NCBI GenBank assembly: GCA_002633005.1
Contig: NMRA01000096.1
Location: 1-64,000, forward strand
Reading direction: 5' to 3'
Source: Phoronis australis
Taxonomy: Eukaryota; Animalia; Phoronida
DNA: 64,000 nt
How positions within the stretch are numbered: the stretch's first letter is position 1; each line of letters opens with the position of its first letter. Of the stretch, positions 7,681-64,000 are shown one piece after another. The notes beneath the pieces were generated by a model, which worked only from the letters and a program-made list of their open reading frames with translations, ran no database searches and was not told the origin of the DNA. A program made the translations under genes and the position numbers.

Positions 7681-10600
7681 GCACAACTTAGCGCCAAGGC
7701 TACGTAAAGCTTAGTGTCATACATATCATACCCGAATTGTAGAACAAACATTAACCTGAAAAAGTCGAAACTGCGACCGCATATACACATTTTTTTCTGC
7801 AGAAGTAATGCGACGAATGCAACAGCATAGAAATCAAACCCTTCGCATACGCGCGCACAAAGGGAGGTTCGAACGAGCCCCCAGTTGGCGAAGTGGGCAA
7901 AAGGGTAACCCTCAGAGAAACAAAAACAACGAAAAGAGTAGAAAACGAGACGACAGCCCACTAAAAAGGCAGGGGCTCTGAACGTACCCCGTAAAGCTTA
8001 GCAAAAGGTCCACATTCGAAATTACTTTTATAAATACGGTGTGCTGATGCTCAAGATATTGGATATCCTGTATGAATTCTAAAGTAAAATAGGTCAAGAG
8101 GTAATGCCACAATATCAAGATTAGTGAAGAAGAAACTCTAGCTTGGAAAAAAATAGTGTGCAAAGGGTGTTTTTGTATTTTGTATAAACACTTTGTTATA
8201 TTGTTATGTGTGTTCCTGTTTGTCTTTGTAAGAATCAATTTTACTGTATATTTGTAGCCAATTGTTCACTTAATGATTGTAATGTAGGTACGAGAATACC
8301 AGACCCCTGTTACTCATTGGAACTGGGAAAATAAAAAAATGAAAATTGTCTATATTGTGTGTATTGTGCTGTCCTTCACTACCCGATTTGGTGTCGTTTC
8401 CGAAACGAAATCTGTTGGAAACAAGTGTAAATTTCACTCTGACAAACTATTATGTATTAAAAGAAATGGATGTTCAATAGTAAAAAATAACAAACAGTAC
8501 AAATGCTTTCTACCACAAGCGCAACTGTGTATTGTTCAGGTACAATTAGCAAAGAACGATACACAGGAGGTAATATCTTTCCTCGATCACCACTGCATAG
8601 CCGGTTGAGAAGTCTTGCCAGTGCTGCAAGATGAAGGTGGTTTTGTTTATCTGTTTTACTAGGTCTGCACAAATCACATGAAGGAATGGGGTGTTGGATT
8701 TTTCTAAGTAACTAGCCATTATCTTTCAATCCGAGTACATGCAAAATATCTGATAACCACTAAAACGCAGCTGACAGAACACCTATGAATACCTAAAGAA
8801 AATTAAGCATTTCATTCTTTCCTCTCTTGTTCTCTTTGATTTCGAATTTTGTGATATTTTGCTTCAGTTGGAGTTTTTTTTTCATGATATACAATTTTGT
8901 TCTTCTTACGTAGGCAAATTTACAACACTTAAAACTGCATTCCCTTCACTGTGTATAAAGTACAAATTAAATTTACAAAACTTGTACTGTAAAATTTTCC
9001 TTACGAACACTGAATATCTGTTGACGTGCAACATTTCAAAAACGCTAAATAAAATAACAGTGCCAACTGGTCCTTCCAGTTGAAGGTTACCTCTCCTCAA
9101 CTCAATATTGGAACTGATTCTATTGCTGCAAGTGAATATTCACGCCTAGTGTGATAGTGAAAATTACCTCAGTTACTTGTTTAAAAAGTCACAGAAGAGT
9201 CCTTGGAGAAGAGTTCATTTTCACAAAATCACGTTGCAGTTCCACATTACTTTACAGCTATTCCATGTATTTATTTTGTGATAATTACAATCTATCCTTT
9301 TTATTAAGAGCTTGTTCAGACACTGAAAGAGAGAAATGGACATTAGGTCTGGAAGTGCATGCCTTCCTTTATAATCATAAGTATGTTTAGAAGTTGTGTT
9401 AGAATGCACTTTTGGCCTATTGCATGGTGATAGCAAGTTTTTGACACTCAATGTTTGCAAATGGTATGCTAATGTCAGGTAGCCTTGGCCTTCCCCCTGG
9501 AACAAAGCTGTATAAATTAGACAAATATTCATTGTTAAACATTTTTACAGCTTCATTTTTACAGCTTCATTTTTTCCAGCTTCATTTTTTAGGTTAATAC
9601 TTGTGCTTATGTTTATGAGCTGATTCATACGGTACTGAACTTATGCAAACACTAATTCTACTTTTAGTAAAAAATCAGCTGATGCGGCTGCAAACACAGG
9701 AAATCACCTGAATATGTTTTTGGCACTATTAACTAATAGCATAACTGAATTACCCTGTGAACGTTTTTAAATGGTATGACAGAGAACGATATACACGTTT
9801 TCTTTTTACAAGTCTTAAAAAATAAAAAATGTAACAGTTCAACTATTCATATCTTCAAACGCGGGACGGCCGGCTGCAACATTTGTAAAACCGGAAGTTT
9901 TGTTCTTTCTTTACGCAGTGCAACCTCATCACCAGTGCTTATATCCTATGTCCGCATCATGCTCAACGCGCTCTGATGAGAGTCGGCAGTCCCTGTCATA
10001 GATATCTTAATACTCTGATGTCTATATAGTCCTTATCTATAGTCTGTGACATCAACTGAGAGTACAAGGTGGCAGACAATTTGATTCGTCGGTATTAGAG
10101 AAAGGTGAGAAGAAGTGAACTATAACCGGTAAGACCGTTTAAGATTCCCTAAATATGCCAAGACAATTCAGTTTAGTTACTAGGCCTACTAGCATAATCA
10201 ACAATTGAGTAGCGAACATTAGAACATCTCTTTTAAAAATAAGCCAAAGATTGGTTTCACGACTAAATCAACAAGTATTTTTCTCACATTGTTTTGATTT
10301 AAGTCCATTTCACAAATTTGTGAAAAACGTTTCGACGGCTCTTCAGCTCTGTTTCTCAGCTGAATACTGGGCTAAGCTGTATTTTAAAATGGTGTTCCAG
10401 CTACTTGACTGGCCAATATTTCAGTGTTTTGCAATTCGAGTGTGATATGTATGACACCAAATTCTGCACTTTCAATGTACGGATTTCTAACTAACAATAT
10501 GCATACAATTAATTTATCAGCAGTTTATGAATTAAGCGAATACTCAGTTTGACAGCTTTTTCACCATTACCCTCTAAACCACGAGATGCAAAAAATGGAG

Positions 10601-20973: not shown

Positions 20974-52011
<31,038 letters not shown>

Positions 52012-53029
52012 CTGCAAAGATAAAAGAAGCCAAGAGCTATGAATGACGTAAACAAACCCTGAGCTCAGGCCACTGACTTTACTGAAGACAGAATGATAAA
52101 GACAACCAATTACATTGAACAACTGCAGTCGATTGTCATCATGTTTATCTGTGCGTAATAGAAACTGGACTGATAAGATGACAGGTGAAATTTATACTTG
52201 TAATTTTTACAATATCTCTGGCAGTAGCAAAAGTCATCATCAGATAAAGTGGACAAGAACTAGTCGGGATTCACCAGAGGAAACTGAAAGGGTAGAAGTG
52301 TATCTAGGATATCATTGCACATCCAGGAAATATTAATAATTAAGACGATAAAAATGCCACCATGCACAGCAATTTCCCAGTTACATTTTGAAAAAAGAAA
52401 TGGGGTTAGGGGAAAAACATAGCACTAGTTAAAGACAAGTCTATGTTCCACAGTTGTAGTTGAGATTTATGTCTACAACAAAAAACTGATTAAGATGCTG
52501 AAAGACATGACAAATTGGTTACTGAGGAATGTAAATTAATTTCATGGTACCTAAAATTATGGAAGCGTTGCTACAAGGGATAATTATACTTTTAATGGCT
52601 TCATTTTACTAAATTATATTAAGAGTCTTGTATACAACAGACTAAAATAAAGAGTTGTCACAAATTTTGCTGGTTTAAGCTTTATTAAAAAATCAAAAAT
52701 GAGATGGGAAATACATTTAACCTTTCTATATTTTTTGAAAAGGACATTACGTACACTTCAATTTCATAAAAGAACGTTTCATTTTATTTTACTGCGCTTT
52801 ATCAACAATATTTCGTTGCTCTTACCATTTCTCTACTTTCAGTGTAAAAAATCCAACAGATCTTTTATGAGTAATTCCGAACAAATGAACTGCTAAAATT
52901 ATGAACTACGCAGCTGTGTGTATGAGGAATGTCAAGGTAAATCACTGGGAAGCAATGTTTACAGTGTCATAACTTACATTGCCACTAGCACTGGAAACAC
53001 AGTGAGTGTCTTACCACAATTAAGAGATC

Positions 53030-53700
53030 TTATGCAACAAGGGATATTATTAGGCAAGATGTCACCAAAACCTGGGGAACGGAAATGAGGCAAGGATGTC
53101 TTCCAATTCCTGTTTACAAGTCAACTAGTACAGGCAGCCAGAGCAAACCAAGAAAATCTGCATGACATGCCCCATTATTACTCAATCAGGCCTGCCAAAG
53201 AAATCAAACGCTATCCTATTACAAGTACAAGGCATCCAGCTCATAATCTTTGAACTTCAACCCAATTTACAACTTTACTTCATTCCACCAAGATGAATTA
53301 ATTGGCTGATATCGGGACCAATCGAAACAAGTAAATGAGTGATTAATGACATGACATCACCAACACAGCTGAGGTAATTGTTATTTATGGCTTACTAACA
53401 TAGATGCAACACTTTCTAAACTTTTTGACATCAGCAATATCTATTATTGAATCTCCGCCTGTCAATAACTTCACCAGATTGACCAATGATAGGTCACAAC
53501 ACCAACAGGATCAGGGGGAAGGACGTTTTGAGGGAATTTCCTCAGTGAATAGAAAGAAAAACTATGTATTGGCTATGCTTACCACAGGACTACAGGAAAA
53601 TGGGACCATCGGGGGAATTAGGGCTTAGAACTAAGCAGTGCAGAGGTGTACAGCATGTATATAACATGGATCAACCACTTGCTGCTTCATTCATTCAAAC
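53030..53700 (+). promoter_or_regulatory. Promoter of the nested secreted-protein gene: kB site, TATA box, Inr-like element
   Basis: GGGAATTTCC at 53532-53541; TATATAA at 53658-53664; TCATTC Inr-like ~30 bp later; TGACATCA at 53352 and 53426; TTATGCAA at 53030. Confidence 0.6.
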
Positions 53701-53754
53701 CTTGCAAAGGCATCAAGAGAAGACCAGTGCAAGAGACAGACATACAAGAACAAG

Positions 53755-53779
53755 ATGAAGACCACCACCATCAACACAA
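53755..53779 (+). CDS. Nested gene exon 1 (MKTTTINT)
   Basis: caagATGAAG...ACAA|gtaagt, phase 1. Confidence 0.75.
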
Positions 53780-56700
53780 GTAAGTTGCAAAGATACAGAA
53801 CATATTTCCAACTTCAAATATTTTTTGGTTCCTTTCAAATGGGACAGTGAAGCTTGAGAAAAAGGATGCATTTTTATTTTTTATTTCTTGAGAGAAAATA
53901 GTATAGTTTTAAAATTTTTAATTAGAGAATGCCATATTTCACATTGAAGTTTCTCTTGTAATTTTGAACAGCTACTACTAAGCCTTGGTATTTTAATCAT
54001 GGACAACTTTTAAGGAAAACAATTACTCAGTTACGTGGCACTCAAAAATTTACTTTCACCACAAAAATAGTCTGTGAGTGAGAGAAGTGCAAATAAAGTA
54101 GATCAATTTTCAAAACGTCGACAAATTTTACTGAAATTCAACTGACGGAAATCTGACAAAAAATCAACTTACATTATATCACCTGAAAATTAGCCAGAAA
54201 TTTTTAGGTCTTACATTTCACCAATTTTAAACAAGAACAATGTCACTTTTGAAAACCATTACAGAACAAAAATGTTTAAAAATCCTTGTCGAGTAAAATA
54301 TCTTTTTAATAAATACGCAAGGTCATCCATTCACTTTGAATGAATTCTCTTTGTTGATGACATTCAAACAATTTACGATTTCCTTTCACAATTTTTATCA
54401 GTTTAAGCCACTGTACTCCTCTGCACTTCAGGTCAGCATCAACTATAAACACGTCAGACTTATGAGTTATGTATGTTTCATAGCATCATAACAAAAATAG
54501 GGAAATTAGATCATAGTTCCTGTAATAGCAACAAAAATATTACATAATGTGCTAAAATAACTAGACATTAGGAGGGTGATCCAAGGATAAATGCTAAAGC
54601 AAACTTGGAAAAATGTGTAAGATTAATTGAAAATATGTGCTTTAAATCGTCTACATTTTCTTTTTTAATTCTAACCTCTCAAGACATTCATTCTGTGACA
54701 ATTTTGAATAGCAGAAGTTTCAATCCGCTTGAAAAGATTTTTATAAGAATGCGAGTTGCAAAAACACAGCACGGTTGTCAGCAACCTTAATTCATTATAT
54801 CTTGTGACTGTTATAAAAAAACATACATCACGGTTGTCAGCAACCTTAATTCATTATATCTTGTGATTGTTCTAAAAAACATATATCACGGTTGTCAGCA
54901 ACCTTAATTCATTATATCTTGTGAGTGTTATAAAAAAACATACATCTCTCAAATCTAGTTGCTTTTATTGTAGACTGTGTAGCCATATTGGTCTTCCTGA
55001 GCCTGTATGTGGCGAGCCGAACCACTGCTATGCCAACAAGACGAACATCAGACATTCCAACAACATTCCACCACAGAACTCCATCAACAAACCATGACAT
55101 TACTCTGACAACCGGACCGATGTTAAGAAGAACTGACAGTGATGCAAGGGAGACAACTGTCCATTCGTCAGACTTTACTTTGTTAAAAGCAATGTCCTCT
55201 GGCACAAGAAACCAGACAACCCGAACTGTTGCGACAGTGAATGCAGCCACGTCCCTTTTGGATACACTCTTTCCCAAAGATTCGACCAATCAGCACCAGG
55301 CAACATCCCGCTCAACCGTAATTACTTTGAATGGCGGCGCAACCAGTGAGGATGAAGATTTGGTCGATACACTGGCATGGCAAATGAAAACGGAATTGAT
55401 TACGCGGAATGGAACAGCATTTAAAGCTCTTCATAACTACGTAAGTGCACTGCTGTTATGTATTAAAAACTGCTGCATCAGGAATACATTTCACCATATT
55501 ATAAACAAAGCAGAGTCCATTTACCCTGGTCATTTCTAAATATTATATGTCTTTTTGTCGTGATGTAAGTTTCTTTACAAGTAAATGTTTGTCAAGTTTC
55601 ATTCCTCAAATGCTCCGATTTAATGACACCAAAAATCAATTAGTAAAATCAATGAGTTTTAATTAGAGTATATAAACAAACTACTTCACAAGCACTGTCT
55701 TTAACTTTTACTGATAGAAACAATGTTCCTAATTATCAATGGTAGGGAGTTTCAACTCACACTTTTGATATTTATTAAGACACATATTATGAGACACGGC
55801 TAAATGTTACAAAGAAAAATGAAACAAAACAAAATGAAACAAAACAACTGATGTGAACTGAACAACATTTTCATTTCCAGGTAAAGGAATACAGCAGTCT
55901 CTTCACCAGTAACTCTATTTATGAGTCTCTCCAAACTCAGATAAGACACTGGGCTAAAGAACCAGACTTCCAGCTGCCAGCGGTGTCTTCGTCTCTCATG
56001 CCTAGAGCAAGCAAACAGGTGTGTTGACAAATTTTCATGAAATATGGCAGAAAATTTTCCTTAATACCTGCTTCGTTAAACACTCTAACACACTGATTCT
56101 TTGAAACACAGGCGCTTGAGTTAATCTATTCCTCGATCGCAAATGACGTCACTCAATACTAATCGGGAAATTTGAGCACCTGTGCATTGAATTTGTAAAT
56201 CTTGAACCCGAGTGGAAATACAGATCACAAATATTTTTAAGTCTGCTCTGCATGCCACCTGTTAGCCACCTCATTTATGGGCATTATGTCACGTGATGTG
56301 ACCAACAGGTGGCGTGCTGACCACACTTAAAAATGTTGGCAATACTGATTCCAATCAACCGCTGATTTTTCTCAGTCTCTGAAAAGTCCTAAGTTCTCAT
56401 TGTTACAAACCTCACTGAAAAGTCTCAAGTTCTCAGTCAATAGATTGTGGCTTTCAGAGACCTCTATTATTATGTAATCAAATGTAAGCATGTATAAAAA
56501 TAATTATTTTAATGATGATGACGATGATGACAATAAAGATGACAGTGATCCTGTCTGCAGTTACTATTAGTTTTTAAGGACCACAAAACTTGAGGGATAG
56601 ACCTCTATTTAGTTGTTATGTCCAGTGTGCAAGGGACAAATATCCAAGTATCAAACAATTCAGTGTGAATTGTAAGTAACCCTCAATACCCTGGGAAGCC

Positions 56701-57974
56701 CGCTGTTCTTCACAAAAACCCGCTGTTTCATTTCATCTCCAGACGACAGCTGATTCCAAATACAAGCTAAACTTATACATCAGTCTAGTCCATTTTTAAG
56801 CGTTCCCAAATCCATTTAGGCTAATTTTTTATCTATTTTTGGGAGAAAATGATCCCAACATAACTTTTCACAAAGCCAAACAGTTCTAAAAATCACCAAT
56901 TTTAGTCCAGGATACATCAGTTTATTTTACCCAGTGTTTTATTGGCCTGACATCATCGCTAATACCCTAATACCATAATTATCTGCTGTTCCACACACAA
57001 GGACCTTAGATCAGTGATCCCGATAAACAGGCTTCTTGACAACAGAAGCACCAGTGCAAATCTATCAATGAACTGCAAGGTGTCTTAAAATGGACTGAGT
57101 TTCTAATGTCACTCTGTTTCAGGCAATTCTTGACAACACCATAGTTATATGGGCCAAACTGAGCTCCATCATAAAGTACGCACAGCAGAATGAGATAAGA
57201 TACATCTGTGAGAACAGCCATCGCTGGGATATCACTCGCGGACTCCAGCTCATCTGCAAATACCCCGACGACCTGAGCCCGTGTAACTACGCTGACCAGC
57301 GTTACCTTATGGGGATTGTCTGCGACATGGAATATCTGGCTCAACCAGTAAGGATTAAATCAGAAATGCTCTTCATATTTGGATCCGTCCACATATTTTG
57401 TTTTCCTCCCAAATGTATAAGTACAACCACTGCAAAATCTAAAATGAAAACTGAGTTTTGACACCAGATCGCACAGTGAAAACCCAAAGGCAAAGGATTT
57501 GTTAGATAATCACATACAGTTACTCACTAATTTAAACAAGTTTTCAGTAATGGGGCCTTTTGTTCCTTACGAATACGTCATTGAAATATAGAAAACAGAA
57601 TTTATTCTGTTCACTTAAAACAAGCCAGCTTTTACTCTAAGTTTTAAACCCTTCATTAACTCCACTCAATAACTCAATAATCAAGTTATGGTAACTACAA
57701 ATTACTACGGACATTTGCATGATTTATGCCATCGAGTAAATTAACACGACAAATAGGTCGTGTAATTGAACAGTGTTTTATTGGCTTGACACTTTCCTTT
57801 CAGTTAACATTTTACATGTCCAATGAGGTCTCCACTCAGGCCCCTCAGCCAGACATTGAGAATTCTGTGGAAGGAAGATGGTACGTACTGTCCAGCCTCT
57901 ATCTGACCATGAGACAGGCAGCTCAGTCGGTGGAGGATATCAACGCCATGGCTAACATGGTCAAGGCAAATTAA
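53755..57974 (+). CDS. Nested 5-exon secreted protein (341 aa), candidate long-chain four-helix cytokine (IL-6/G-CSF/Unpaired-like)
   Basis: Exons 53755-53779, 54974-55440, 55881-56018, 57123-57347 and 57804-57974 (1026 nt), all GT-AG, one open frame ending TAA; signal peptide MKTTTINTNCVAILVFLSLYVASRTTA; intron phases 1,0,0,0. Confidence refers to the gene model; the family call is less certain. Confidence 0.85.
54770..54946. repeat. 58-59-bp tandem repeat, 3 copies
   Basis: CACGGTTGTCAGCAACCTTAATTCATTATATCTTGTG at 54770, 54829 and 54887. Confidence 0.9.
54974..55440 (+). CDS. Nested gene exon 2 (signal peptide end, Thr/Ser-rich stalk, helix A)
   Basis: ttttattgtag|AC CVAILVFLSLYVASRTTAMPTRR...EDEDLVDTLAWQMKTELITRNGTAFKALHNY|gtaagt. 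Confidence 0.85.
55881..56018 (+). CDS. Nested gene exon 3 (A-B loop)
   Basis: tttccag|VKEYSSLFTSNSIYESLQTQIRHWAKEPDFQLPAVSSSLMPRASKQ|gtgtgt. Confidence 0.8.
57123..57347 (+). CDS. Nested gene exon 4 (helices B and C, 4 Cys)
   Basis: tgtttcag|AILDNTIVIWAKLSSIIKYAQQNEIRYICENSHRWDITRGLQLICKYPDDLSPCNYADQRYLMGIVCDMEYLAQP|gtaagg. Confidence 0.85.
57804..57974 (+). CDS. Nested gene exon 5 (C-D loop, helix D, stop)
   Basis: ctttcag|LTFYMSNEVSTQAPQPDIENSVEGRWYVLSSLYLTMRQAAQSVEDINAMANMVKAN TAA. Confidence 0.85.
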   Translation, partial: LTFYMSNEVSTQAPQPDIENSVEGRWYVLSSLYLTMRQAAQSVEDINAMANMVKAN

Positions 57975-58616
57975 ACAACCGATTGTCCAAGAAATCTTCA
58001 GTAAATTCCATAGAGTTGCTGCATCTATTATTTATATTGTTTTTGTTTTTAAGTTAATTGTTTTAATTTATTTTTTCTTCAGTATTATCTTTGAAGTGTT
58101 GCACTTTCAAAAGGTCATAATGCATGTTAAGTGGACGTTTAAGTAATGCATGTTAAGTGGCCGTTTAACAGACTTACTTATAATGCATAATGTTAATTTT
58201 GATTTTTATGGGAGTAACGTAAACTAAAAACTACATTGTTAAAAGCTAACTGCAACTGTCATTAGATTCATTTTACAATAATTTTTACTGATAGTGAAAA
58301 ATAGGCGTATAAAAAATCATATCATTACCTTTACTGGCTATTGCTTGTAAAAAAAAGAGATTGCTGTATGTGACGCTTTTTAGTCACAGTTTCTTGACTT
58401 ATTTATTGCATAAAGTTAGATGTGGATATATTTTATCAAGCATAATAATCCGAAAGAGTATAACTCTCTAGTCATGGTGATGAACTGTTTATGTTGAATG
58501 AGTGTCATGAAATGGCAATATTTTGTGTCTGTATTAATTTATGTTGTGAACGAGAATATAAAAGCCAAGTTGAAATCAAAGCTTTATCTTTTCAAAAAAT
58601 CCCAATCCAAACATAC

Positions 58617-60273
58617 AACAAGAGCACTGCGGAGCATTGGAATGTGCCCACGAATGCACCGCAAACGGGATGCTTCTAGGGATGCTTATTTGTATCATAA
58701 AAATGGACACTACATGGTGCAATGTCCAATCCATCCGAAAATGGAAACATGATAACGCTTCTTTAATAGAAAGCTATTTATCAAATTTCATAAAATCTGT
58801 TAAAGAACCTCAGAGAAACAAAAGGAAACACAAAAACAAAATTGCCACACGGGCACACAGCATTCGTTGAATCCACCTAAAAGTCGTCATCTGTTGTTAG
58901 CTTCAAATAAAAGCACTTGCTAAATTTAATAAAGATCCTGCTGTGGGTTTAGGAGAAACAGTTATGGACCAAAACAAAACTACCACTAGAAGGCACCACA
59001 GTAGTCAAAGTCGTTATCGTGAACAGTCCTCTTCACACTGAAAACATAAACGCCACGTTTCAAAACCATCTTTTGAAAGATTTGGTTGATAGAGGGATGG
59101 ACAACAAAAAACAGACTCGAAAACAGCAAAAATGGAGGACACTAGATGGCGCAAAATTCTTCGGTTCCATCCAAAAACAGGAGGATAGCATCATCTCACC
59201 AACAGATGCCTGTATTCAAAATTATATGAAAATCCGTTGAGGATCCTTGAAGATACAGAGGTAAACGTAAAATCTAAAATTGCCACCAGGGGGTACACCA
59301 GTAGTCAGATCTGTCCGAAAGTCGTCGTTCTTCTTTGTCAACATCATATAAATACACTGATTAAATTTAGTAGAGATCCTGCAAACGGTTTAAGAGATAC
59401 AGCCATGAGCCTAATTTTCAAAATCATCCTCAGAATGGTTTGGTTGATAGAGCGTGGACTCAAAAATAACAAAAATGGCCACTAGGTGGTGTAAACTACA
59501 CCGAATCCAGCCTAAAACACAGGATAGCGTCATCTCGCTAACAGATGCCTATACGCCAAATGTTACAAAAATCCGTTGAGGACCTTTGAAGATACAGAAG
59601 TAAGCGTAAAACACTAAAATTGCCTATAGGGAGCACACTGGTAGTCCGATCCATCCGAAAGTCGTTGTCATCCGTTGTCAACATCATATAAATAAACTTT
59701 TTAAATTTAATAATGATCCTGCAAAGGTTTAGGAGATATAACCATTGATGCAAAAAAATAACAAATCTGTCACTAGGTGGCGCCACAGTAGTCAAAGTCA
59801 TTGGAAAATCATCATGAGTCGTCCTCTTCATAACAAGAACATACGTACCAATTTTCACAATCATCCTTAGAGCAGTTTGGTTGATAAAGGGGTGGATGCC
59901 AAAAAACACACTCGAAAACAGTAAAAATGGCCATTAGGTGGCGCAAACTATGTTGAATCCACCCAAAAGCAGGGGGATAGTGTCATCTCAATAATAGATG
60001 CCTATATGTCAAATTTTATGAAAATGCTTTAAGGACCTTTACACAGGTGAGCGTAAACAATATAATTGCTACTAGGGAGCACACCGATAGTCGGATCTGT
60101 CCGAAAGTTTGCTCAGGCAGTCCCATCCAAGAAAGGAACATGCTCGCAAAATTTCATGAAAAAACTTCAACGGGTTTTGGAGATAGAGTAGCAGATGCCG
60201 GACAGACGCCAGACGGACGGAGACGACGGCATAATCTGTACAGTGCACATATAAATATGTGGGCACATAAAAA
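58617..60273 (+). mobile_element. HINE-type non-autonomous Helitron/Helentron with internal ~150-bp tandem core repeats (copy 1)
   Basis: 5' AACAAGAG...ATGTGCCCAC (58642-58651) inverted to 3' GTGGGCACAT (60259-60268); (GGAC)n microsatellite at ~60200; terminal hairpin CACATAT-AA-ATATGTG; ends in ATAAAAA. Confidence 0.7.
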
Positions 60274-60296
60274 TTGGTTAACTGACTTATTGGCAA

Positions 60297-60527
60297 GCCT
60301 CGGTGGCGTAATGATAAAGGTATATGACTGTCTATCCTGCTACCTGGTCAATGCTCAGCTTTGTCATGCAGTACATTCAGTCTTGTAAGAGTGGGGACAT
60401 TCCAGGCTAAGGATGAGTACGTACAGTGAGGATATCCCAGGCCAAGGATGAGTACGTAGGGTGGGGACATCCCAGGCCAAGGATGAGTACACACAGTGGG
60501 GACATTCCAGGCCAAGGATGATTGCGT
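60297..60527 (+). repeat. SINE-like head followed by a 35-bp minisatellite (4 copies)
   Basis: A-box-like GGTGGCGTAATG; units GTGGGGACATTCCAGGCCAAGGATGAGTACGTACA starting at 60391, 60426, 60461 and 60496. Confidence 0.75.
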
Positions 60528-60999
60528 AAAACGACCATCCACACTCTGCGATGGTTTTAATCTTGTTGAAGTTTGCAAGTATATAAACTCTAGGTAACTA
60601 CCGGTAGTTAGGAGGCAAAACAAAAGCAGGTTCAGTACAGAGAATTGATTCATGTTTAATGGCAAGACACAATTTGTCACAGGGAATCCATTCTCCATCG
60701 GTGGTTTAAAACACAAAGGAATTCAAGGCCAGACAAGTTTTAATGACTGTTCGATGCTTTAGTTCACAATGGAATATTTCAAACCGTCAAACACCTAAAT
60801 TAATTTCCACTCACAATTACAGACACAGTAAGCATGACATGGCAATTAATGTGATTGATAAATGCAGTCCTAAATGACCATGCATATATGTCAAATAAGT
60901 CAAATTTAGTGAGTGTGTAATAAGTAATTATGTTTCAAAGTACCTAATGAGACGTCATTATGGAAAATGAGAGCAAAACAGGATTCACACTGAAAATGG

Positions 61000-61043
61000 A
61001 CTGCATCACACTGCACTGCACTGCACTACACTGCACTGCACTA
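61000..61043. repeat. (CTGCA)n pentanucleotide microsatellite
   Basis: Direct reading. Confidence 0.85.
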
Positions 61044-61075
61044 GAACATTAAAAGCTCTGAAGCACAAGAACACG

Positions 61076-63399
61076 AATAAGAGTGACGCGGAGTGTTGAA
61101 ATGTGCTCACCAATGCATCACAAACTGTGTGCTTTTAGGCTTGTTCATTTGTGTCATAAAAATGGCCACTAATAAGATGGCACAAAAACATACAATCCAT
61201 TCGAAAATGAAAACATGTCGTAGCTTCCTTAATAGAAAGCTATTCACCAAATTTCATACAAATCTGTCACGGAATTTCAAAGAAAAAAAGGAAAACAGAA
61301 TAAAATGAAATTGCCACTAGGGGGCACAGTGTTCATTGGATCCGCCTGAAAGTCGACACTGGCTGTTGTTAGCTTCACATAAATACACATACTAAATTTA
61401 ATAAAGATCCAGCAGTGGGCTTAGGAGATACAGCTATGGGCGCAAAACAAAATAAAATGATTGGAGAAGCCACAATAGTCAAAGTCGTCATCGTCAACCA
61501 TCCTCTTCACCCAGAGAACATAATTTTTAAAACCATCCTTAGAATGATTTGGTTGACAGATGGATGTTCCCAAAAAACAGACTTGAAAACAGCAAAAATG
61601 GCCACTAGGTGGCGCAAAATTCCTCGATTCCACTCAAAAAGGAGGATAGCGTCATCTCACCAATACATGCCTATATTCAAAATTTTATGAAAATCCGTTG
61701 AGGACCTTTGAAGAGGCAAAAGTAAAATCTAAAATTGCTACCAGGGGGCACACCAGTAGTCAGATCCATCCGAAAGTCGTCGTTGTTCTTTGTCAACATC
61801 ACATAAATACACTTATTAAATTTGGTAAAGAACCTGCAAATGGTTTAAGAGATACTGCACTGGGCACAAAAACGAAATTGCCACTACGAGGCGCTACAGT
61901 AGCTGATGTCATCAGAAAATCATCGTCAGCTGTCTACTTCATAGTAAAAACATACATGCGAATTTTCACTATTATCCAGAAAGCGATTTGGTTGATGGAG
62001 GGCTGGAGGCCAAAAACAGACTAGAAAACAGTAAAAATGGCCACTAGGTGGCGTAACTAAGTCAAATCCATCTGAAAACGGAAAGATAGCGTCACTACAC
62101 TAACAGAAGCCTGTACGCCAAATTTTTTTAAAATACGTTGAGGACCTATGAAGATACAGAGGTCAACGTAAAAAAAAATAAAATTGTCACCAGGAAGCAC
62201 ACCAGTAGTCAAATCCGTCCGTAAGTCGTAGTCGTCCTTTGTCAACATCATATAAAGGCACTTACTAAATTTAGTAATTTAAAAGATCCTGCAGATGGTT
62301 TAGGAGATACAGCCACAGGCGCAAAAAAAACAAAGCTGCCACTAGGAGGCGCCACAGTCATCAAAATCAGCGGAAAATCATTGTCAGCCGTTCTCTGCAT
62401 AGTAAGAACATATATGCCAATTTCCATAATCATCCTTAGAGCACTTTGGTTGATGGAGGGGTGGACGCCTAAAAACAGACTCGAAAACAGTAAAAACGGC
62501 TACTAGGTGGCGCAACTAAGTCGAATCCATCTGAAAACGGAAAGATAGCGTCACCACACTAACAGAAGCCTGTGCGCCAACAGCAACACCACCAACAACC
62601 GTCAGACAGAGCCTGATCAACTCTGTTGTCCCATTTACTAGAGATGGTCTTGGTTTAGAGACGAAACCATTAAGGACAGCAAGAGACCAACTGAAGATGG
62701 CGGTTGAGCACAGTTCCATCAAGTGTTTAAAGTAAGTTTGAAATACGTTGAGGACCTTTGAAGATACAGAGGCTAACATAAAAAAATAAAATTGCCACCA
62801 GGGGGCACACCCGTAGTCAATTACGTCTAAAATTCGTCGTCGTCCTTTGTCAACATCATATAAATGCACAAAGCTGCCACTAGGAGGCGTCACAGTTGTT
62901 GAAATCTTCGGAAAATCATTGTCAGCAGTCCTCTTCATAGTAAGAACATATATGCCAATTTCCACAATCATCCTTAGAGCAGTTTGGTTGATGGAGGGGA
63001 GGACACCTAAAAACAGACTCGAAAACAGTAAAAATGGCCACAAGATGGTGCAAATTATGTCGAATCTATCCGAAAACGGGAGGATAGCGTCATCTCACCA
63101 ATAGATGCCTACATGCCAAATTTTATGAAAATATGCTAAAGACCTTTGAAGATATAGAGGTAAGCGGAAAAAACTAAAACTGCCACTAGGGGGGCACACC
63201 GGTAGTTGGATCAGTCCGAAAGTTTGCCCATGCCGTCCCATTTATAAAAGGAACACCTGCAAAATTTCATGAACATAGGTCAAACGCTTTTGGAATTAGA
63301 GCAGCAGACGCCAGATGCCGGACGGACGGATGTCGCCCGGACGGACGGACGAAGATGAGGGCATAATTCATCCACATATAATTATGTGACGCATAAAAA
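61076..63399 (+). mobile_element. HINE-type element, copy 2 (longer core array, with a foreign insert)
   Basis: Same 5' end (AAGAG...AATGTGCTCAC), core monomers, (GGAC)n at ~63320-63352 and 3' hairpin CACATA-TAAT-TATGTG followed by ATAAAAA. Confidence 0.7.
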
Positions 63400-64000
63400 T
63401 GCAAGTGCTACACAAAAAAAACAATGTACTCCCAGTTGACACACTGCAAACTCAAAGCTCACTGGGTGCTCACAATGCCGAACTTCCAGTAAAATTGAAA
63501 TTTGCAGGGGGTGCAGTGCTAGTCATCTGAAATTCGACAGGTGCTCTCCTCTCATTACCGAAATACAGTGACTATCTCAATCGTTTAACTTCAAAAACAT
63601 CAATCTACCAGTCTGACAGTTCAAAAGGTGGAAATTAAACAATTATCAAATTGCCTCCAGTAGGCACTTTTCAAGCGTGAATTTGTTCGAAAATAAGCGA
63701 ATGCAGTCTTCGCGTTACTAAAAACATTTAGCAAGCAAACTAACCAGCTTACTTCCACTAAGATCAGGGAAGCAGTTTTTCAGAAAAGGAAAGGTAAAAA
63801 TTACTACATAACAAAGCAAAATAGACAGCTCCATCCACAAAACAGAAAAGTACTGACTGATCCTTGAGAGGAGCACATTTAGTAAACTATCACAAAAGTC
63901 TATCAGGAAACTTGGTAAATATTAATTTAAAAGTAAAAAAGAAGTAAAATTGACACTTGGTGGCAAAACAAAAGTTACGAGCACCCAATCGGTTGAAATC

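Follow-up and report, generated by a model that had tools for sequence, protein, structure and literature searches.

A five-exon gene of Phoronis australis encoding a candidate long-chain helical cytokine

The DNA analysed here is a 64-kb stretch from the phoronid Phoronis australis, i.e., positions 1-64,000 of the forward strand of contig NMRA01000096.1 (GCA_002633005.1), and we refer to this whole stretch as the window. A sequence-only reading had proposed that its plus strand carries a hidden gene for a four-helix cytokine resembling IL-6, G-CSF and the insect Unpaired proteins. We find that the candidate is a real, transcribed and spliced gene. Its product is probably a new long-chain helical cytokine, in a lineage from which no such ligand has been described, and the value of that assignment hinges on the predicted fold.

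Results

A Transcribed and Spliced Gene with Five Coding Exons

The coding exons of the candidate, with the parts of the protein assigned to them, are as follows.

53755..53779, plus strand: coding part of exon 1 (25 nt), 8 codons and 1 nt, with the predicted start of the signal peptide; a phase-1 intron follows, and RNA reads join this exon to 54974
54974..55440, plus strand: exon 2 (467 nt), with the remainder of the predicted signal peptide (to about 55029), the stalk (about 55030-55356) and, from 55357 on, the greater part of proposed helix A; read depth 0.1-2
55881..56018, plus strand: exon 3 (138 nt, 46 amino acids), with the end of helix A and the proposed A-B crossover loop, including a short amphipathic helix (residues 176-189)
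57123..57347, plus strand: exon 4 (225 nt, 75 amino acids), with predicted helix B, a Cys-containing B-C linker bearing a 9-residue helix, and predicted helix C; RNA reads join it to 57804
57804..57974, plus strand: coding part of exon 5 (171 nt, 56 amino acids and stop), with the C-D loop followed by helix D, the predicted last helix (residues 307-340)

When the exons were joined by these coordinates, an open frame of 341 amino acids and a stop resulted. The introns (1194, 440, 1104 and 456 nt) all have GT-AG ends and are in phases 1, 0, 0 and 0, so that the gene model of the sequence-only reading, including its tiny first coding exon, was borne out. Exons 2 and 5 each have three possible acceptors, giving nine in-frame combinations, only one of which yields 341 amino acids. 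Intron 1 also contains a tandem repeat (54766-54946) with a 59-nt unit present in 3.1 copies, the last of which stops 28 nt short of the acceptor of exon 2.

Expression was examined in the raw-read runs X1, X2 and X3, about 18-19% of each being sampled, and splice joints were listed when at least 3 reads from 2 starts supported them. The joint 53779>54974 was found in five reads (one in X1, four in X3), and 57347>57804 in four reads, all from X3. These reads have their first mates on the minus strand, as plus-strand RNA would give in most stranded libraries. Because the two joints coincide with the two ambiguous acceptors of the 341-residue model, they settle the choice for exons 2 and 5; none of the alternative acceptors (54959, 54983, 57828 and 57840) was supported by any listed joint. 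Thus two of the four proposed junctions were confirmed at the predicted bases, whereas the middle two (55440>55881 and 56018>57123) were not among the joints listed, the local depth being about 0.3-2. Sense-strand reads were concentrated on the exon bins, with zero depth in most intron bins. The transcript was present at low depth in two of the three runs (X1 and X3) and was not seen in the sampled portion of X2; X4 provided a contig in the 3' untranslated region (UTR) only.

The guanine-cytosine (GC) content is 44-49% in exons versus 30-38% in introns. Among the listed coding differences between reads and window, four of five were synonymous and at third positions (p about 0.016-0.045). The single missense difference lies in the proposed A-B loop, exon 3 carrying two synonymous differences and this one.

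The five-exon plan with phases 1, 0, 0, 0 matches the gene layout of long-chain class I cytokines: in vertebrates, the three introns other than the first are in phase 0, one lying behind helix A, the next behind the A-B loop and the last behind helix C. We found no passage in the open literature that gives all four vertebrate phases. According to passages in PMC3271213, fish IL-6 has five exons and four introns, and the first intron of IL-11 is expected 7 bp past the start codon, i.e., in phase 1. The probability of obtaining 1, 0, 0, 0 by chance was about 3%, computed with generic phase frequencies.

Promoter and 3' UTR Elements

The promoter and UTR were scanned for 15 motifs, with uncorrected p values calculated per motif. 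The following elements were placed on the map.

53352..53433, plus strand: two putative CRE/ATF-like octamers, TGACATCA (starts 53352 and 53426), 2 of 11 in the window
53532..53541, plus strand: NF-kB consensus site, GGGAATTTCC, located some 126 nt upstream of the TATA box
53658..53694, plus strand: TATA box (53658-53664) and initiator-like TCATTC with its A at 53689, the predicted transcription start
57975..58450, plus strand: 3' UTR, covered by reads to about 58450 and by a contig at 58167-58318

The distance from the start of the TATA box to the initiator A is 31 nt, the canonical spacing; of the 82 TATA-like sites in the window, 2 are paired with an initiator of this kind at that distance. 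With transcription predicted to start at 53689, the ATG further upstream, at 53666, would not be transcribed. The window contains eight kB sites, and when the 500-nt promoter was shuffled 1000 times, 3.6% of the shuffles contained one. No STAT, AP-1 or IRF site was found in the 1 kb upstream of the candidate. In the 3' UTR, AU-rich nonamers (TTATTTAWW) occur at 58028 and 58399, accounting for two of the three plus-strand copies in the window (p = 0.017, 300 shuffles), but plain ATTTA was not enriched (p = 0.41). A canonical AATAAA was not found in the 3' UTR. Taken with the low resting expression, the kB site, the TATA-initiator pair and the AU-rich nonamers fit an inducible, short-lived message.

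These data also bear on whether there is a protein-coding gene here at all. Chance splice sites, or a non-coding antisense transcript within an intron of the GCN2 gene on the other strand (see below), might account for low depth, for two of four junctions being unlisted in RNA and for the lack of homologues. Such an explanation is very improbable, given two joints at the predicted bases, sense depth restricted to exons, 341 open codons, the synonymous bias, the contrast in GC content between exons and introns, and the TATA-initiator pair.

The Predicted Protein

The signal peptide claimed by the sequence-only reading was supported by hydropathy, residues 10-22 forming a 13-residue hydrophobic core with a mean Kyte-Doolittle (KD) value of 2.7. 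No membrane-spanning stretch follows, the best later 19-mer having a KD value of 0.98, and secretion is therefore predicted. On hydropathy, the protein thus has the signal peptide without membrane anchor that is expected of the cytokine class. The proposed Thr/Ser-rich stalk was also found, Thr and Ser making up 37 of the 107 residues from 29 to 135 (35%). It is non-repetitive, there being no tandem repeats in any exon of the candidate. N-glycosylation motifs occur at residues 88 and 154.

The region after the stalk comprises 205 amino acids (residues about 137-341). In passages of PMC13081863, a screen that discovered IL-6 proteins used a range of 150-280 amino acids; the full 341 residues lie outside it, and the 205 without the stalk lie inside. 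As had been noted from the sequence, exon 4 contains four Cys residues (239, 255, 264 and 277), and these are all that the domain has. All eight of its prolines fall outside the four proposed helices, an observation that is partly circular. With predicted limits, the helices are 32 (A), 27 (B), 17-21 (C) and 33 (D) residues long, the norm for the family being about 20-30. The loops, again with predicted limits, are about 42-45 (A-B), 25 (B-C) and 23 (C-D) residues, against a family norm of long A-B and C-D loops and a short B-C loop. On these limits, the A-B linker is long and the B-C linker fairly long and Cys-rich, as in the sequence-only reading, and the C-D linker is shorter than described there.

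The predicted C-D linker, of just 23 or so residues, weighs against assignment to the long-chain cytokines, and so does the amphipathicity of the segments. The sequence-only reading had described four amphipathic segments. However, the hydrophobic moment of none of them significantly exceeded those of shuffled sequences (p = 0.12-0.35 each), and the combined Fisher values were 0.086 and 0.19 on two scales. In segments A and B the moment did peak at 105-110 degrees. Two windows chosen post hoc (residues 150-172 and 176-189) gave p < 0.01.

Homologue and Family Searches

A phmmer search of 1,835,955,588 representative sequences, using the read-through of exon 4, intron 4 and exon 5, gave no match at an expectation value (E) of 0.001; this query had X at stops, included 152 intron codons and ran without helix A and exon 3, and would have missed relatives of about 25% identity. 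Exon 4 compared with longer proteins gave three candidates, none at E = 10, and the exon 5 region gave no candidate in the protein collections. No paralogue was found within the 64-kb window, where the gene is single copy.

Single exons and read-throughs were scanned against Pfam at E up to 10, and no match to IL6, IL11, GCSF, LIF_OSM, CNTF, IL12 or Unpaired was obtained; the queries were these pieces rather than the full spliced domain, and the HMMER filters drop weak matches. The resemblance of helices C and D to Unpaired-like motifs, suggested earlier, was thus not confirmed. A match to a mucin or shell-matrix family, which would have contradicted the cytokine assignment, was looked for in the family scans, and none to any piece of the candidate was found; the Pfam matches obtained were all at chance level. 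Sequence matches in the PDB to beta-glucuronidase (E = 0.17) and BaiE (E = 0.03-0.16) were dismissed as noise, and there were no others. The ESM Atlas yielded no usable match to exon 4 or exon 2. Helix D may resemble that of IL-11 in aliphatic spacing, and the end of helix A may resemble CNTF, LIF and OSM. The absence of relatives, when an exon of the host gene GCN2 finds relatives at 51-68% identity, fits the fast divergence reported for the family, which is discussed in passages of PMC13081863.

Structure Models

AlphaFold2 modelled exon 4 alone as all-helical, with a predicted local distance difference test score (pLDDT) of 52.6 and a predicted template-modelling score (pTM) of 0.33. The helices span residues 214-240, 247-255 and 266-282, and the two long ones lie where B and C were proposed. 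A model of the exon 4-exon 5 read-through was unusable (pLDDT 35), its best-scored part being that from exon 5 (residues 307-340, about 50), which was helical. Fold searches with the exon 4 model, a two-helix fragment of pLDDT 53, returned no cytokine among the matches listed. They returned 14-3-3 and FF domains and other helical bundles, which are generic, the fragment being of too low confidence to settle the fold. With low confidence, the order is thus helix A at the end of exon 2, a loop exon of 46 residues, exon 4 with helices B and C, and exon 5 with a loop before helix D. Thus the gene model and a circumstantial case for a long-chain cytokine stand, but the up-up-down-down bundle was not obtained, because the searched databases held no homologues for an alignment and the piecewise, single-sequence models were of low confidence.

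A helical domain behind a Thr/Ser-rich stalk might instead belong to a lineage-specific secreted glycoprotein (of mucus, shell or tube matrix, adhesive or gamete), with a mucin-like stalk, an unrelated helical, disulfide-bonded domain and an IL-6-like layout by chance. The 35% content of Thr and Ser, the lack of homologues or family matches and the generic bundles returned for exon 4 would all suit such a protein, and a layout with a chance rate of about 3% means less when the sequence-only reading had selected for it. However, the stalk has no repeats and the protein no mucin or matrix match, an inducible signal would explain the very low expression, the kB site and the AU-rich nonamers better than a bulk structural protein would, and the register of helices to exons matches the cytokine plan. 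We regard this as the foremost alternative, although a rather unlikely one.

The helices could also be those of another branch, i.e., a ligand like growth hormone (GH), prolactin (PRL) or leptin, or a class II cytokine like the interferons or IL-10. GH and PRL genes likewise have five exons, the first of them tiny, and counting the two mini-helices would bring the predicted helical segments of the candidate to five or six. Yet control of an immune, rather than an endocrine, kind is indicated by the kB and AU-rich elements, and the first intron is in phase 1, inside the signal peptide. Interferon genes, as described in passages of 10.64898/2026.05.30.728932, have phases 0-0-0-0 and encode five helices, and the structure screen reported there found none outside chordates. 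Overall, membership of another branch appears improbable.

The Host Gene GCN2 and Other Features of the Window

The minus strand of the window carries the stress-kinase gene GCN2/EIF2AK4, its best match in the PDB. The part present occupies 21290-52018 in about 18 exons and encodes the kinase, HisRS-like and C-terminal domains, the N-terminal 570 or so residues falling beyond the window.

51860..52018, minus strand: first kinase-domain exon of GCN2/EIF2AK4, placed by mapped GCN2 proteins

When four of seven fetched GCN2 proteins were mapped, matches ran from residue about 570 (at 52018) downward, and none of residues 1-570 mapped to 52036-64000. The candidate therefore most likely lies antisense within an intron of GCN2 that is at least 12 kb long, a placement absent from the sequence-only reading. 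None of the joints listed for 44100-64000 was a GCN2 joint spanning the candidate, and a break in the assembly or the gene is a possible alternative to one long intron. Low-depth reads of opposite orientation (first mate on plus) were seen in X1 and X2 at 52068-54059, over the promoter and first intron of the candidate, as expected of GCN2 pre-mRNA.

The closest relatives of this GCN2 are those of Lineus, Tubulanus, Lingula and Mercenaria (66-68%). In a tree of eight rows, including the seven fetched proteins and leaving out annelids, chitons and cephalopods, the window grouped with Lingula, weakly (83/89, below the starred threshold). Judged by its GCN2, the animal belongs to the lophotrochozoans, and possibly to their brachiopod/phoronid side.

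Elsewhere in the window, a THAP-domain open frame (202-588, minus; Pfam PF05485, E = 2.8e-8) is probably transposon-derived or a THAP zinc-finger gene. An 89-codon plus-strand frame at 8339-8608, with a hydrophobic start and several Cys residues, resembles a small secreted peptide; it had no Pfam match and may be due to chance. Inside a GCN2 intron, two plus-strand open frames (44947-45955) presumably resemble the C-terminal part of a reverse transcriptase of the long interspersed nuclear element type; they had no Pfam match. A near-identical duplication at about 48100-49980, with 840-nt spacing and the single N of the window (49030), could reflect either overlapping pieces of the assembly or a repeat element copied in tandem. 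Finally, 58629-63400 (and also 40959-41310) is an array of related 300-850-nt repeats of 67-87% identity, to which many RNA reads originating at other loci also match; its longest frame had no Pfam match.

Discussion

We conclude that the gene probably encodes a long-chain four-helix cytokine of the IL-6/IL-11/G-CSF/Unpaired type, and hence a candidate JAK/STAT ligand for a gp130/Domeless receptor. This assignment draws on the exon plan, the domain of about 205 residues, the helices predicted for exons 4 and 5, the prolines confined to the proposed loops, the kB and AU-rich elements and the lack of any mucin or matrix match.

In the mechanism that we propose, infection or injury would induce the gene through NF-kB, the AU-rich elements would keep its mRNA short-lived, and the signal peptide would direct export of the protein from the cell. 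The Thr/Ser stalk may be O-glycosylated, and might tether or space the ligand or be trimmed off. Residues about 137-341 would fold into four helices, with A from exon 2, both B and C from exon 4, and D from exon 5, connected by A-B and C-D crossover loops, and the ligand would dimerise a class I cytokine receptor of the gp130/Domeless type on blood or epithelial cells, activating JAK/STAT signalling.

A stronger proposal is that the protein is a true homologue of IL-6 and G-CSF, the gp130/Domeless ligand of a lophotrochozoan on the brachiopod/phoronid side, which has kept the 1, 0, 0, 0 plan and control by NF-kB and AU-rich elements since the bilaterian ancestor and has added a mucin-like stalk. 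We give this about an even chance. If true, the IL-6 gene plan would go back to the bilaterian ancestor, and there would be a concrete molecule for tests of STAT activation in lophotrochozoans.

An IL-12p35-like protein has reportedly been described in oyster, but we did not find it in the literature. Our search of the open literature (PMC and bioRxiv) revealed no description of a cytokine with the IL-6 plan in a brachiopod, phoronid, nemertean or annelid. In the sections available of PMC13203501, a 2026 survey including brachiopods, annelids and molluscs describes invertebrates as having JAK, STAT and IL6R-like receptors, with ligands of the IL-6 family in vertebrates only, insect Upd apart (BLAST, E = 1e-5, 30% identity). 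Similarly, the available text of PMC9601804 defines the family by its up-up-down-down topology and gives no invertebrate matches. Even lamprey IL-6 was found only in 2026, through structure, and passages of PMC13081863 report hagfish IL-6 as well.

Compared with vertebrate IL-6, IL-11 and G-CSF, the candidate has no measurable sequence similarity, carries an extra Thr/Ser stalk of 107 residues and a longer, predicted Cys-rich B-C linker, and comes from a lophotrochozoan. It shares with them five coding exons, with a single intron within the signal peptide and three in the domain, as well as predicted secretion, a domain of about 200 residues predicted to be helical, an AU-rich 3' UTR and a failure to be detected by sequence search.

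Among invertebrate ligands, the Aedes Upd-like protein has, in the portions available of 10.1101/2025.09.21.677592, a signal peptide, disordered regions including one beside the cytokine domain, and Dome-dependent activity. Pieces of the candidate differ from Unpaired in giving no Pfam match to that family at E up to 10. Like Drosophila Unpaired 1-3 and Aedes Upd-like, however, the candidate is a protostome protein with a predicted signal peptide, a disordered region beside a cytokine-sized domain, and N-glycosylation sites.

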